From a virus: a stretch of 35,783 nucleotides of DNA. A model generated the notes under the pieces. It was not told the origin of the DNA, made no database searches, and was given only the letters and a program-made list of their open reading frames with translations. Each line of letters begins with the position of its first letter. Position 1 is the first letter of the stretch. Position numbers and translations under genes: made by a program. The stretch lies in UHGV virus genome UHGV-0117379, one strand, 5' to 3'. Below, one piece after another: positions 3,167 to 30,284 of the stretch.

Positions 3167-3676
3167 ATGTTTGATTACCAAGTTTCCAAACATCCACATT
3201 TTGATGAAGCCTGTCGTGCATTCGCACTGCGCCACAATCTGGTGCAACTGGCAGAACGTGCGGGCATGAATGTGCAGATTCTGCGGAACAAGCTGAACCC
3301 AGCTCAACCTCATTTATTAACCGCACCAGAAATCTGGCTGCTTACCGATCTGACTGAAGATTCAACGTTGGTAGATGGTTTTCTGGCACAGATTCATTGT
3401 CTGCCATGTGTACCGATTAATGAGGTAGCAAAAGAGAAACTGCCACATTACGTCATGAGTGCAACCGCAGAGATCGGGCGTGTTGCTGCAGGTGCGGTAT
3501 CTGGCGATGTAAAAACCAGTGCAGGTCGTCGTGATGCTATCAGCAGCATTAACTCTGTAACACGACTGATGGCGCTGGCGGCTGTTTCATTGCAGGCCCG
3601 TTTACAGGCTAATCCTGCGATGGCGAGTGCAGTTGATACCGTGACTGGCCTCGGTGCTTCATTCGGTTTGCTGTGA
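3167..3676 (+). CDS. cII: Phage CII-type regulator (186 CII-like)
   Basis: Track ORF starts at TTG 3158; ATG 3167 (GGAG RBS) gives 169 aa beginning [20 protein letters not shown], which I remember as closely matching 186 CII. Confidence 0.8.
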
Positions 3677-3683
3677 GGTGCTT

Positions 3684-3980
3684 ATGCTGACGAAAGAACC
3701 ATCATTTGCATCGCTGCTGGTAAAACAAAGCCCGGCAATGCACTACGGTCACGGCTGGATCATGGGTGAGGATGGTAAACGCTGGCATCCGTGCCGTTCA
3801 CAAGATGAATTGCTGTCTGAATTGACCACGGGGAAACGGAGAAAGTCAAAATGTATGCAGCGGAAAGTGAAGTGGTTTATCAGTTTCGTTACAGAGGGGA
3901 GAGTTATTCAGTACCTGAAGATGATTTGCTCTGTTGTTATCCGTCGTTGTCGGGCGATGGCAGTTACTTTTTCACGCTAA
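3684..3980 (+). CDS. Hypothetical early protein
   Basis: ATG 3684 follows GAGGTG RBS directly after the cII stop. The second half of this frame is Cys/Arg-rich and low in complexity and overlaps ORF 3851..4075, so the 3' extent is uncertain. Confidence 0.4.
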   Translation: MLTKEPSFASLLVKQSPAMHYGHGWIMGEDGKRWHPCRSQDELLSELTTGKRRKSKCMQRKVKWFISFVTEGRVIQYLKMICSVVIRRCRAMAVTFSR

Positions 3981-4075
3981 AGGATGGGACGTTTTTACGG
4001 GGAGAGCAGGTTAAAGAGACGATACGAAAAAATGTATCTCCTCTTGAACGTTACCGTAAGAGCAAAGAACGATAG
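3851..4075 (+). CDS. Hypothetical early protein (74 aa)
   Basis: ATG 3851; protein-like composition (MYAAESEVVYQFRYRGESYSVPEDD...); overlaps the previous ORF by about 130 nt in another frame. Confidence 0.5.
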   Translation: MYAAESEVVYQFRYRGESYSVPEDDLLCCYPSLSGDGSYFFTLKDGTFLRGEQVKETIRKNVSPLERYRKSKER

Positions 4076-4097
4076 TTGCGTTTTGGGGATATGAATT

Positions 4098-4439
4098 ATG
4101 GCAATTAATGGCGCTGCGGCGACTGTTCCATTAAGCCCCGGTGAACGCCTGAATGGACTTAATCACATTGCGGAGTTAAGGGCGAAAGTTTTTGGCCTGA
4201 ATATTGAGTCAGAGCTTGAGCGGTTTATTAAAGATATGCGTGATCCACGGGATATCAATAGCGAACAAAATAAACGGGCACTGGCTGCCATATTCTTTAT
4301 GGCAAAAATTCCAGCTGAACGTCATAGCATCAGCATTAATGAGCTGACCACTGACGAAAAGCGGGAGTTGATTAAAGCAATGAATCATTTTCGTGCAGTG
4401 GTGAGCTTATTTCCCAGACGGCTAACCATGCCGAATTAA
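4098..4439 (+). CDS. Hypothetical phage early protein (113 aa)
   Basis: ATG 4098 with GGGGA RBS; sits within the early operon. Confidence 0.65.
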   Translation: MAINGAAATVPLSPGERLNGLNHIAELRAKVFGLNIESELERFIKDMRDPRDINSEQNKRALAAIFFMAKIPAERHSISINELTTDEKRELIKAMNHFRAVVSLFPRRLTMPN

Positions 4440-4506
4440 CCAGCTAATGAAATTAATGGCGTAAACCCGCCGGGCATCCCTTTATCTAAATTCAGGAGAA
4501 TTGATT

Positions 4507-4740
4507 ATGCGTAATATTGAAACCCTCACGACTAAAACCGGACCGGATGACGCAGGGCTTAATATTTTACTGACAGAGGCTCGTCTGGAAGAACGCCGGG
4601 CAAGGGCTGAAGCAATGGCTGCCCGCCTTGATAGTCTTGCGTGTCATATCACATCCCGCCAGCTAAACCACGTCGAAGCGGCAGAACTGCTGCGTGTGAC
4701 CGCTGAAGCAATCCAGAACGAAGCGCAGGAGATCCACTAA
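4507..4740 (+). CDS. Hypothetical phage early protein (77 aa)
   Basis: Track ORF starts at TTG 4501; ATG 4507 follows CAGGAGA RBS; stop overlaps the next start (TAATG). Confidence 0.6.
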   Translation: MRNIETLTTKTGPDDAGLNILLTEARLEERRARAEAMAARLDSLACHITSRQLNHVEAAELLRVTAEAIQNEAQEIH

Positions 4741-4967
4741 TGGCTGATGCAATGGATCTCGTACAGCAGCGCGTTGAAGAAGAACGCCAGCGCCATATCC
4801 GTGCTGCCCGTGCCAAAACACCGGGCGTGTCTCGCGTGCTTTGCATTGAATGTGAAGCGCCAATTCCGCCAGCACGCCGCCGCGCCATTCCAGGAGTGCA
4901 GCTTTGCATTACCTGTCAGGAAATCGCAGAGCTGAAAGGCAAACATTACAACGGAGGTGCTGTATGA
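4740..4967 (+). CDS. TraR/DksA-family C4 zinc-finger protein
   Basis: CIECEAPIP...CITCQ four-cysteine motif; short protein in the P2-like early operon. Confidence 0.7.
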
Positions 4968-5266
4968 CAGGGGCTGTGCGTATCCATCAATTAAAAATTG
5001 CACCTAAGTATTTCAACGCTGTGGTTGCAGGTCAAAAGACGGCTGAACTTCGTAAAGACGATCGTGGCTATAAAGTTGGTGATGTTCTTTCTCTTTGCGA
5101 ATGGAAGCATGGCGTATTTACGGGTAGGGAATGGGCCGCGGTTATCTCTCATGTGCTTCCGGTTAATGACGTCATGGCAGTTTCAGAACAATGGGTGATG
5201 CTATCAATTCGCTCATTAACCCCATTAGAAGCTTTAGGATATGTTATTGCAGGAGGTGCTGTATGA
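4964..5266 (+). CDS. DUF3850/ASCH-like small protein
   Basis: ATG 4964 overlaps the previous stop (ATGA) with GGAGGTG RBS; the family assignment is from memory of the sequence pattern. Confidence 0.55.
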
Positions 5267-6120
5267 GCACCATCCTGAAATGGGCGGGTAATAAAACCAC
5301 CATTATGTCCGAACTGAAAAAATACCTTCCTGCTGGCACGCGACTGGTTGAACCTTTCGCGGGTTCTTGTGCTGTGATGATGGAGACGGATTACCCCAGC
5401 TATCTGGTTGCGGATATTAATCCTGATTTAATCAACCTCTATAAAAAGGTTGCTGCTGATTGTGAGGCGTTTATATCTCGTGCCAGAGCTTTATTTGAGG
5501 AAGCAAACAGAGAGGTGGCTTATTACAACATAAGGCAGGAGTTTAATTACTCCACTGAAATTACTGATTTCATGAAAGCGGTATATTTTCTGTATCTCAA
5601 TCGTCATGGTTACCGTGGGCTATGTCGCTATAACAAGAGCGGGTATTTCAACATTCCCTACGGTAATTATAAAAATCCGTATTTCCCTGAAAAAGAAATT
5701 CGCGCATTTGCAGAGAAAGCCCAGCGGGCAACGTTTATCTGCGCCAGCTTTGATGAAACGCTGGCGATGTTGAAGGCGGGGGATGTGGTGTATTGCGATC
5801 CGCCTTATGACGGTACGTTTTCCGGCTATCACACTGATGGCTTCACTGAAGATGACCAGTATCACCTGGCATCCGTTCTTGAACATCGATCATCTGAAGG
5901 TCATCCGGTCATTGTTTCTAACAGTGACACATCCCTGATCCGTTCGCTGTATCGCAATTTTACTCACCACTACATCAAGGCAAAACGCAGCATCGGCGTG
6001 GCAGCTGGTGAGAGTAAATCTGCAACAGAAATCATCGCTGTTTCCGGGCCGCGCTGCTGGGTAGGATTTGATCCTTCGCGTGGCGTGGATTGTTCCGTCG
6101 TGTACGGAGTGCGTGCATGA
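5263..6120 (+). CDS. dam: DNA adenine methyltransferase (Dam family, N6-adenine)
   Basis: N-terminal LKWAGNK...PFAGS AdoMet motif and catalytic DPPY motif ([10 protein letters not shown]); ATG 5263 overlaps the previous stop; AGGAGGTG RBS. Confidence 0.85.
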
Positions 6121-8531
6121 GCCATGCTGATATGAACAACTGCAGCGGCTTTAACGAGGTCGCCGCAGCATTCTCATGGAACAGCCCGAAAAAGGCCATT
6201 AACCCTTATCTGGACCCGGCGGAAGTTGCGCCGGTTTCTGCGCTTTCAAACCTGATCACTCTGTACGCTGCCGATAACGAGCAGGAACAACTGCGCCGCG
6301 AGGCACTGAGTGATCAGGTCTGGGAGCGTTATTTCTTTAATGAATCCCGTGATCCTGTCCAACGCGAAATGGAGCAGGATAAGCTAATTAGCCGGGCAAA
6401 GCTGGCGCATGAGCAGCAGCGTTTTAATCCAGACATGGCCATTCTGGCGGACGTCAACGCCCAGCCTTCCCATATCAGCAAGCCGCTGATGCAACGTATT
6501 AAATACTTCAGCAGCCTGGGCAGGCCAAAGGCTTATTCCCGCTATTTGCGTGAGACGATTAAGCCATGCCTGGAACGACTGGAGCATGTACGCGACAGTC
6601 AGCTATCCACTTCTTTTCGCTTTATGGCAAGCCATGAAGGGCTGGACGGCCTGCTGATCCTGCCTGAAATGAGTCAGGATCAGGTGAAACGCCTGTCCAC
6701 CTTGGTAGCTGCGCATATGAGCATGTGCCTTGATACAGCTTGTGGCGATTTGTATGCCACCGATGATGTTACGCCAGAAGAAATCCGCAAGACATGGGAA
6801 AAGGTGGCAGCGGAAACCCTGCGTCTGGATGTTATCCCGCCTGCGTTTGAGCAACTCCGTCGGAAAAGAAACCGCCGTAAACCCGTGCCTTATGAACTCA
6901 TTCCTGGTTCGCTGGCGCGTATGTTATGCGCCGACTGGTGGTATCGGAAATTATGGAAGATGCGTTGCGAATGGCGGGAAGAGCAGTTGCGTGCTGTTTG
7001 CCTGGTCAGCAAAAAAGCATCTCCCTATGTCAGCTATGAAGCCGTGATGCATAAACGTGAGCAGCGCCGTAAGTCGCTGGAGTTTTTCCGTTCTCATGAA
7101 CTGGTGAACGAAGACGGCGACACGCTGGATATGGAAGACGTGGTAAACGCCAGCAGCAGCAACCCTGCGCATCGCCGCAATGAGATGATGGCCTGTGTTA
7201 AAGGTCTGGAGCTTATCGCGGAAATGCGCGGTGACTGCGCCGTTTTCTACACCATCACCTGTCCGTCACGTTTCCATTCCACGCTAAATAACGGCAGGCC
7301 CAACCCGACCTGGACAAATGCGACGGTAAGACAAAGCAGTGATTATCTGGTCGGTATGTTTGCTGCATTTCGTAAGGCGATGCACAAAGCCGGATTACGC
7401 TGGTATGGCGTGCGGGTGGCTGAGCCGCATCATGACGGTACAGTTCACTGGCACCTGTTGTGTTTTATGCGCAAAAAAGATCGCCGCGCCATTACTGCTT
7501 TGTTGCGTAAGTTTGCCATTCGTGAAGACCGCGAGGAGCTGGGTAATAACACGGAACCACGCTTTAAGTCTGAGCTGATAAACCCGCGCAAAGGTACGCC
7601 AACAAGCTACATCGCGAAATACATCAGTAAGAACATTGACGGGCGTGGTCTGGCTGGCGAGATCAGCAAGGAAACGGGTAAATCCCTGCGTGATAACGCC
7701 GAATACGTTAATGCCTGGGCGTCTCTGCATCGTGTTCAGCAATTCCGCTTCTTTGGCATTCCGGGGCGTCAGGCTTACCGTGAACTGCGATTGCTGGCTG
7801 GTCAGGCGGCAAGGCAACAGGGGGACAAAAAAGCAGGTGCGCCGGTACTGGATAACCCGCGCCTTGATGCCATCCTGGCTGCCGCTGATGCTGGCTGTTT
7901 TGCCACCTACATCATGAAGCAGGGCGGCGTACTGGTTCCCCGCAAATATCACCTCATCAGAACCGCTTATGAAATCAACGAAGAGCCGACCGCCTATGGC
8001 GATCACGGTATTCGTATTTATGGCATCTGGTCACCCATTGCAGAGGGCAAGATCTGCACTCATGCGGTGAAGTGGAAAATGGTTCGTAAGGCCGTTGACA
8101 TTCAGGAGGCGGCAGCCGACCAGGGCGCTTGCGCCCCTTGGACTCGTGGCAATAACTGTCCCCTTGCTGAAAATTTGAACCAACAAGGGAAAGACAAATC
8201 AGCTGATGGGGATACCAGAACGGAGATCACCCGCATGGATGACAAGGAGTTGCACGATTACCTGCACAGTATGAGCAAAAAAGAGCGCCGGGAACTGGCA
8301 GCAAGGTTACGCCTGGTGAAACCGAAATGGCGTAAAGACTACAAACAGCGAATTACAGAGCATCAGCGTCAGCAGCTCGTCTATGAACTGAAGTCCAGAG
8401 GATTTGATGGCAGCGAGAAAGAGGTCGATCTGCTCCTTCGCGGTGGCAGTATTCCGTCAGGAGCAGGCCTGCGTATCTTCTATCGGAACCAGCGTTTGCA
8501 GGAAGATGATAAGTGGCGGAACCTGTATTAA
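6117..8531 (+). CDS. A: Replication initiation endonuclease (P2 gpA-like, rolling-circle HUH type)
   Basis: ATG 6117 overlaps the dam stop; HUH-like motif HWHLLCF and paired-tyrosine motif [10 protein letters not shown]; about 800 aa, at the P2 gpA position. Confidence 0.85.
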
Positions 8532-22457: not shown

Positions 22458-23036
22458 ATGAATACACAACTGACAGAAATCATGCGCCTTATCACCAACC
22501 TGATCCGCACTGGTGTAGTCACCGAAGTGGACAGGGAAAACTGGCTTTGCCGGGTGAAAACAGGCGACTTAGAAACCAACTGGATCAGCTGGCTGACCCT
22601 GCGTGCCGGGAATGCCCGGACATGGTGGCGACCATCGGAAGGTGAGCAGGTGGTGCTGCTGAGTCTGGGCGGCAATCTGGAGACCGCCTTTGCGCTGCCC
22701 GCTGTCTATTCGAATCAGTTCGCACCACCGTCGACGTCGGCGGACGCCTGCGTGACAGAACATCCTGACGGTGGCTGGTTTGAATACGAACCCGCCACCG
22801 GGCGCTGGTATGTCAGGGGCATCAAATCCATGGTTATTGAGGCTGCCGACAATATCACCCTGAAAACCAGTGAGTTTGTGCTGGAGGCTGACCGCACGCG
22901 TATTAATAGTGAAGTAGTGATCAATGGCGGCGTTACCCAGGGCGGCGGTGCGATGAGTTCTAACGGAATTGTGGTTGATGCACATCAGCATACTGGCGTC
23001 CTGAAAGGCGGCGACACAACCGGAGGCCCGGTATGA
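22458..23036 (+). CDS. V: Baseplate assembly protein V (spike; P2 gpV-like)
   Basis: ATG 22458 (track ORF starts at TTG 22452); size and position match P2 V. Confidence 0.8.
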   Translation: MNTQLTEIMRLITNLIRTGVVTEVDRENWLCRVKTGDLETNWISWLTLRAGNARTWWRPSEGEQVVLLSLGGNLETAFALPAVYSNQFAPPSTSADACVTEHPDGGWFEYEPATGRWYVRGIKSMVIEAADNITLKTSEFVLEADRTRINSEVVINGGVTQGGGAMSSNGIVVDAHQHTGVLKGGDTTGGPV

Positions 23037-29768: not shown

Positions 29769-30284
29769 ATGGCTTTACCACGCAAATTAAAACACCTGAA
29801 CCTGTTTAACGACGGGAACAACTGGCAGGGGATCGTTGAGTCGCTGACGCTGCCGAAATTTACCCGCAAATATGAGAAGTATCGCGGCGGCGGAATGCCG
29901 GGTGCGGTGGATGTGGATCTGGGGCTTGATGACAGTGCGCTGGACACAGAATTTTCCATTGGTGGTACTGAATTGCTGCTGTTTAAACAGATGGGTAAAG
30001 CCACGGTGGATGGCATCCAGCTGCGCTTTACCGGCTCTATTCAGCGTGACGATACCGGGGAAGTGCAGGCCGTGGAGCTTGTCGTGCGTGGACGTCACAA
30101 AGAAGTGGATTCCGGCGAGTGGAAGACGGGCGAAAGCAACACCACCAAAGTGACCAGTACCAACAGCTACGCGAAGCTGACCATCAATGGTGAGGTGCTC
30201 TATGAAGTGGACCTTATCAACATGGTGGAAATTGTGGACGGTGTGGACCTGATGGAAGCGCACCGCAACGCCCTCGGCCTCTGA
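29769..30284 (+). CDS. FII: Tail tube protein (P2 gpFII-like)
   Basis: 171 aa directly after the sheath gene. Confidence 0.85.
   Translation: MALPRKLKHLNLFNDGNNWQGIVESLTLPKFTRKYEKYRGGGMPGAVDVDLGLDDSALDTEFSIGGTELLLFKQMGKATVDGIQLRFTGSIQRDDTGEVQAVELVVRGRHKEVDSGEWKTGESNTTKVTSTNSYAKLTINGEVLYEVDLINMVEIVDGVDLMEAHRNALGL

Follow-up and report, generated by a model that had tools for sequence, protein, structure and literature searches.

The 15-bp repeat belongs to the early operon of an E. coli prophage that resembles P2 and 186 (Felsduovirus-like), and a 1.8-kb stretch around it in the window (the whole 35,783-nt stretch of DNA that was analysed) was 100% identical to E. coli C51. Two copies of the repeat bracket a small gene of the DUF3850/ASCH family, which stands between a gene for a TraR/DksA-type zinc-finger protein and one for a Dam-type DNA adenine methylase (Table 1). 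The DUF3850 product also matched PDB 3iuw (E=8e-10) and phrog_986, annotated as 'RNA-binding protein', and contains an ASCH/PUA-like domain. No promoter-like site and no convincing terminator-like site was found on the + strand around 4900-5300, and a search of the DUF3850 segment for inverted repeats at its ends and for an attC-like palindrome was negative. A literature search on DUF3850 returned nothing on this locus.

Table 1. Genes, repeat copies and predicted structure of the early operon around the DUF3850 gene
Feature	Position	Strand	Remarks
DUF2732 gene	4501-4740		
TraR/DksA-type zinc-finger gene, 75 aa, P2 orf82-like	4740-4967	+	PF01258 (zf-dskA_traR) E=3e-11; phrog_54; ends ...NGGAV*
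Left 15-mer copy	4953-4967	+	GGAV* end of the DksA-like gene (four codons plus stop), SD, ATG of the DUF3850 gene
DUF3850/ASCH gene, 303 bp, 100 aa	4964-5266	+	PF12961 E=1e-23; ASCH E=2e-5; ends ...AGGAV*
Segment missing in 'empty' relatives, 299 bp	4968-5266, equally 4953-5251	+	Edge ambiguous within the repeat
Predicted SD-hiding hairpin	5250-5277	+	5250-5260 (CAGGAGGUGCU) pairs with 5266-5277 (AGCACC-A-UCCUG, A5272 bulged)
Right 15-mer copy	5252-5266	+	Last four codons and stop of the DUF3850 gene (GGAV*), SD, ATG of Dam
Dam-type (D12) DNA adenine methylase gene	5263-6120	+	PF02086 E=2e-76
Dam-to-gpA junction GGAGTGCGTGCATGA	6106-6120	+	Ends GVRA*; SD and ATGA overlap as in the 15-mer, other sequence
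Replication protein gpA gene	ends 8531		

A scan of the whole 35.8-kb window placed exact + strand matches of the 15-mer, GGAGGTGCTGTATGA, at 4953-4967 and 5252-5266, that is, at the start and end of the 303-bp gene, where the initial annotation had located them; the distance from start to start is 299 bp. The bases beside the copies are aac/gca on the left and cag/gca on the right and, because these flanks diverge immediately on both sides, the repeat is exactly 15 bp long. When up to two mismatches were allowed, three matches were seen against 0.11 expected by chance, a number that was reached in none of 100 shuffles. The third of them, at 30191 with 2 mismatches, falls within a late gene and was set aside as a chance match. 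A degenerate form of the motif, GGNGGNGYNNNATGA, was found in the window at both repeat sites only.

Each copy carries a Shine-Dalgarno (SD) sequence, GGAGG(TG), a 6-nt spacer to the ATG and an ATGA overlap between the TGA of the upstream gene and the ATG of the next one (4964-4967 and 5263-5266), in agreement with the earlier reading of the 15-mer as a ribosome binding site, an ATG and an overlapping TGA. Because the 15-mer is read in frame as Gly-Gly-Ala-Val, the upstream protein must end in these four residues, and the translations (NGGAV* and AGGAV*) confirmed that the upstream and the bracketed proteins both end in GGAV. Synonymous changes of the GGTGGCGCAGTTTGA type in one repeat would still keep GGAV and a start codon. 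The ATGA stop/start overlap is the classical arrangement for translational coupling in operons and, judged from the sequence, where the signal is plain, the 15-mer is a putative translational-coupling junction. As in classical ATGA coupling, GGAGG is located 6 nt before the AUG and within the last codons of the upstream gene. Unlike in the classical case, the identical 15-nt junction is used here at two successive gene boundaries, and four unrelated gene families end in a degenerate version of it.

The initial annotation had suggested a cassette between short repeats and had proposed to compare related prophages for sites that lack the gene and keep a single copy of the 15-mer. Such sites were abundant among close relatives with 95-97% identical flanks. 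In 43 phage records, 94-97% identical to the window and including Salmonella RE2010, Klebsiella 4LV2017 and Escherichia Cartapus, both flanks aligned, exactly 299 bp were absent and one 15-mer was retained; the RE2010 junction, cattacaacGGAGGTGCTGTATGAgcaccatcc, consists of the left flank, a single 15-mer and the right flank. We then considered a set of 80 loci from IMG/VR in which the DksA-like protein matches that of the window at 100% identity. Sixty-three of them had 15 nt between the flanks (empty) and the remaining 17 had 314 nt (filled). The 15-mer bounded the flanks in all states, with a one-base variant in 2 of the 63 empty loci, and the left and right copies of the 17 filled loci were identical to each other. 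At one IMG/VR empty site the junction reads GGAGGTGCTGTTTGA: the DksA-like protein still ends in GGAV*, and the Dam start is changed from ATG to TTG. Among 5426 complete E. coli genomes, about 1248 carried the locus and 76 of these had the DUF3850 body; exactly 299 bp were missing and one 15-mer was kept in approximately 94% of the genomes with the locus. A scan of GTDB genomes with a DUF3850 alignment provided three useful enterobacterial loci, the other 70 being distant genes of Firmicutes and Collinsella in contexts unrelated to this operon.

The gene content of this part of the operon was surveyed in 215 P2-like loci, over the stretch between the DUF2732 gene and gpA. About 30 gene orders were found, built from DksA-like, exonuclease, orf78, DUF3850 and Dam genes and, in addition, five or more unknown genes that encode 90-334 aa. 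The motif GGNGGNG(C/T)NNNATGA ended the DksA-like, exonuclease, orf78 and DUF3850 genes, each family with its own version, and was absent from the fixed genes upstream (DUF5347 ends in TMPN*, DUF2732 in QEIH*). With a degenerate form ending four unrelated gene families of the slot, the other proposal of the initial annotation, a reusable translational-coupling junction, was also borne out, and its two alternatives are not mutually exclusive. It had further been considered that a widely conserved junction would speak against a cassette; the motif proved to be widely reused, which did not refute the cassette, since the motif is the substrate of the cassette polymorphism. A 4-nt ATGA or GTGA overlap was present at nearly every junction of the chain, also at those that lack the GGNGGTGC core. 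The first codons of each downstream gene remained constant whatever gene precedes it, which places the module boundaries exactly at the ATGA. Accordingly, Dam was preceded in relatives by a DksA, DUF3850, exonuclease or orf78 gene, with an ATGA junction every time. In phage SEN8, for example, a DnaQ-like exonuclease gene with the 3′ end GGTGGTGCTAAATGA (KGGAK*) lies between DksA (GGAAGTGCTTTATGA) and Dam, and contig L088 carries DksA, exonuclease, orf78, DUF3850 and Dam in a row, four consecutive genes ending in GGAx* with ATGA overlaps.

Other arrangements were also seen in the slot. Chain genes of about 58, 90, 92, 157, 282 and 334 aa were present in L249, L252, L253, L255, L202 and L170, and some of the unidentified genes in these loci end in a shifted motif, e.g. 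AAGGCGGCAGCATGA and AAGGGGGTTGCATGA. Dam is absent from some lineages, in which gpA directly follows DUF3850. In L198, L241 and L242 (about 4998-6200), Dam is apparently truncated after 39 codons and is followed by approximately 1 kb of other sequence and then by a second Dam match, which may represent an insertion inside Dam.

The divergence of the DUF3850 gene was compared with that of its neighbours. Nucleotide identity to the MLG42-type operon was 75% for DUF3850, 74% for Dam and 73-78% for DUF2732; because it has diverged as much as Dam and DUF2732, DUF3850 is an old resident of the slot and no recent arrival. The inserts of filled loci differed by up to 4.6%, like their flanks. Filled loci were distributed over at least eight flank haplotypes, several of them with an empty nearest neighbour. 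Linkage decayed within 300 nt, linkage disequilibrium was uniformly low over the region (r2 0.06-0.14), and no flanking SNP tracked the filled or empty status. A query with a synthetic empty site against the 5426 E. coli genomes detected no empty twin at least 99% identical to the window's prophage, the nearest empty locus in E. coli being 97.9% identical, and hence no recent deletion or insertion in situ was caught. Two filled/empty pairs, each the best of many, showed similarity that breaks close to the repeat: L008 and L054 differed at 6 positions over 2698 nt to the right, and on the left from position -37 onwards, and L020 and L046 were identical over 763 nt on the left and differed on the right from position +59. 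These breaks would fit crossovers in the repeats or tens of bases from them. In E. coli 2012EL-2448 and STEC2018-553 (NZ_CP027586, NZ_CP075665), the DUF3850 body was 100% identical to that of the window over 284 nt and the surrounding 1.8-2.5 kb were 96.7-96.9% identical, and from this difference in identity the insert and flanks of these two strains have different histories.

The two copies in the window are identical at all 15 positions, and we compared the junctions of other lineages with this in mind. Of about 195 DksA-like genes surveyed, 132 end in GGAGGTGCTGTATGA, which is thus the usual 3′ end of this gene. DUF3850 genes of the window's type carried the exact DksA version of the junction in 19 of 19 cases. 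In the remaining DUF3850 lineages of the slot, the 3′ junction is GGGGGAGCTATATGA (phage MLG42 type), GGGGGTGTTCAATGA, GGGGGTGGGGAATGA or another version, and these clades differ from the exact DksA version at 3-6 positions; the exact duplicate in the window's lineage therefore needs a recombination event. A perfectly matched pair of copies is not a general feature of DUF3850 loci. One and the same Dam allele follows at least five other junction versions (GGTGGTGCTAAATGA, GGCGGTGCAAAATGA, GGGGGTGTTCAATGA, GGGGGTGGGGAATGA and GGGGGTGTTGAATGA), and therefore the 15/15 identity is not forced by function. A second, independent parallel was found in L273, where GGTGGTGCTGTATGA and GGGGGTGCTGTATGA stand on either side of the exonuclease gene. 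On comparison of these sequences, the identical copies point to a crossover or conversion that ended at the motif, not to convergence.

At the right copy, the junction is also predicted to fold. Dam codons 2-4 (AGCACC-A-UCC), similar to the 16S anti-SD sequence, are complementary to the SD portion of the junction, and in the resulting hairpin the Dam AUG is located in a 5-nt loop. The predicted structure had z=-3.5 at the right copy of the window and z=-2.5 at the empty site of RE2010, and no significant local RNA structure was found at the left copy (z=+0.6). The same hairpin was also predicted in L001 (about 2050-2080). Its pairing was retained in 84% of cells over 40 distinct junctions, whichever gene lies upstream. 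A covariation test on the 40 junctions gave 0 compensatory pairs and did not exceed the shuffle control, the substitutions being one-sided and wobble-compatible only. The predicted fold is consistent with a coupling in which the ribosome binding site of Dam may be unmasked. A ribosome that stops at the UGA would reinitiate at the overlapping AUG and, at the right copy, the terminating ribosome would also open the hairpin that hides the Dam ribosome site. Dam synthesis would thereby depend on the translation of whichever gene is upstream. Dam expression in these prophages is probably linked to translation of the preceding gene.

We propose that a duplicated coupling junction brackets an optional DUF3850/ASCH gene, and we assign a probability of roughly 0.7 to this reading, including the coupling just described and the following history. 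DUF3850 would be an old occupant of the slot. Recombination with a genome of the DksA-junction-Dam ('empty') type would have swapped DUF3850's own 3′ junction for the DksA-type one, through a crossover or conversion tract that ran through the homologous 5′ end of Dam and ended with the homology at the left edge of the motif. The perfect 15-bp direct repeats would then permit precise loss of the gene via slippage or unequal crossing-over, and the filled and empty states would spread between backgrounds via ordinary homologous recombination in the 95-97% identical flanks. Because the gene body lies between two perfect copies, gain or removal of DUF3850 leaves the frames and the coupling signal unchanged.

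Slipped misalignment or unequal crossing-over between short direct repeats is a well-known source of RecA-independent deletion in E. coli. The locus shares with such deletions the perfect repeats, here 299 bp apart, a dispensable segment and a colinear one-copy allele. It differs from them in that the repeat is both translation signal and coding sequence, and in that the neighbours and the coupling survive either way. The clean boundaries could alternatively reflect selection on rare illegitimate recombinants. All in all, the pattern fits known phage gene shuffling, ordinary in kind, rather than a new mechanism.

A stronger claim would be that the Gly-Gly-Ala-X-stop/ATGA junction is a true recombination linker of the Botstein type with single-gene resolution, at which P2-like early operons exchange the cassettes of an array that lacks a recombinase, and that short-homology exchange between co-infecting phages and resident prophages gives rise to the gene orders. 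We consider this possible and rather doubtful. The motif is common to four unrelated families, many gene combinations, some with changes of order, keep the same boundaries, and in the two filled/empty pairs the similarity ends no more than about 40-60 nt from the cassette edges. In addition, the DksA-type junction has apparently been transferred both to DUF3850 in the lineage of the window and to the L273 exonuclease gene. Against a dedicated linker, a linkage scan for a hotspot gave r2 of 0.079 at the junction versus 0.06-0.14 elsewhere, with no dip and hence no excess of recombination at the junction, and neither tandem duplications nor other reciprocal products were found among the relatives. 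Furthermore, 15 bp is a very short homology for RecA-dependent exchange, and between families the match is often imperfect. No gene for a phage recombinase was noticed in the part of the early region covered here. If the claim were nevertheless true, out-of-register crossovers between short homologies would insert, delete or rearrange DksA-like, exonuclease, orf78, ASCH/DUF3850 and several unknown genes, each shuffled product being automatically in frame and coupled. The junction would then correspond, at the level of single genes and of translation, to Botstein's linkers and to the PeSL elements of T4-type phages, and the locus a tractable test case for phage mosaicism at short conserved boundaries versus random illegitimate joining. 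Lambdoid linkers and PeSL elements provide the precedent (PMC2839356).

Less probable still is a functional convergence on an optimal SD and ATGA, combined with illegitimate recombination and selection (Hendrix-type model), in which the repeat as such would have played no role; we regard this as unlikely. The similarity of the motifs may be partly convergence, because an unrelated late-operon junction at 23022-23036, GGAGGCCCGGTATGA, resembles the 15-mer: it matches at 11 of 15 positions, encodes GGPV* with an ATGA overlap, and its in-frame GGAGG and ATGA have arisen independently between unrelated genes. The near ubiquity of ATGA/GTGA overlaps in the chain, even without the GGNGGTGC core, and the failure to detect a recombination hotspot at the junction would also be expected under convergence. 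However, with at least five junction versions before the same Dam allele, the 15 positions are not all fixed by selection. Convergence would also have to account for the exact DksA version in every DUF3850 gene of the window's type, when other clades are 3-6 positions off, and for the retention of exactly one copy in the empty allele.

The 15-mers are very improbable as a mobile-element footprint, i.e. the target-site duplication or att sites of a transposon, integron cassette or homing element: the bare pattern of direct repeats around a small gene, with a single copy at the empty site, is all that recalls such an element, and against it the segment encodes only the 100-aa ASCH/DUF3850 protein and no transposase, integrase or endonuclease, terminal inverted repeats and an attC-like palindrome are absent, every relative has the 'duplicated' sequence as the native 3′ end of its DksA-like gene, where it serves as coding sequence and translation signal, and a genuine IS1 insertion in L022 looks different, with its own 9-bp duplication inside a gene. 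Transposon and integron cassette were accordingly ruled out for want of a recombinase, terminal inverted repeats and attC. L022 is one of the 17 filled loci, and its IS1-like element (IMGVR_UViG_643348545_000015, about 3214-4304) adds approximately 777 bp and interrupts DUF3850, with the short target sequence GGAAGCATG at both ends and both 15-mers intact. What had appeared in this contig as a DUF3850-DUF3850 locus with a 1091-bp 'insert' is thus IS1 inside DUF3850, not another cassette.

The reading of an optional gene between duplicated coupling junctions can be compared with known systems of gene exchange in phages. In the Botstein/Campbell linkers and in PeSLs, conserved regulatory sequences flank shuffled small non-essential genes (PMC2839356), and the T4-type PeSL, composed of a promoter and a terminator stem-loop, isolates each gene transcriptionally (Arbiol et al. 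2010, PMC2839356). As in these systems, related phages differ here by genes inserted, deleted or replaced exactly between short sequences. Unlike a PeSL, the present element consists of a stop/start junction for translation, is internal to a single operon and has neither promoter nor terminator; because the promoter-terminator structure is absent, with no sigma-70 promoter and terminator stem-loop flanking the gene, a PeSL cassette was ruled out. PeSLs are also associated with minicircles and elevated recombination at the element, and in contrast the linkage scan was negative at the present junction. Morons, as described by Hendrix et al. (2000) in the account given in PMC2839356, come with a promoter and a terminator of their own and frequently lie in the opposite orientation. 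DUF3850 resembles a moron in being a single extra accessory gene present in some close relatives and absent from others. Unlike a moron, it is co-oriented, lacks either signal and relies on transcription of the operon and on the predicted coupling; a moron was ruled out because the gene has no promoter and terminator of its own and is ATGA-coupled on both sides. Whether phage genes are exchanged at limited homology or by illegitimate joining followed by selection is still debated (PMC3945230).

The locus represents a very clean natural present/absent gene polymorphism that is bounded by a duplicated translation signal, with the operon intact in both states. It bears on how small accessory genes enter and leave temperate phage operons without promoters of their own, and about 1250 E. 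coli prophages offer abundant natural variants of it. Annotators should be aware that it is the ribosome site of the following gene that imposes the C-terminal GGAV on these proteins.

The ASCH/PUA-like gene lies directly 5′ of Dam and is linked to it by ATGA, and a DnaQ-like exonuclease gene fills the slot in relatives. The ASCH/PUA-like fold is frequently associated with the recognition of modified nucleic acids. A functional link among the ASCH/DUF3850, Dam and exonuclease accessory genes is possible.
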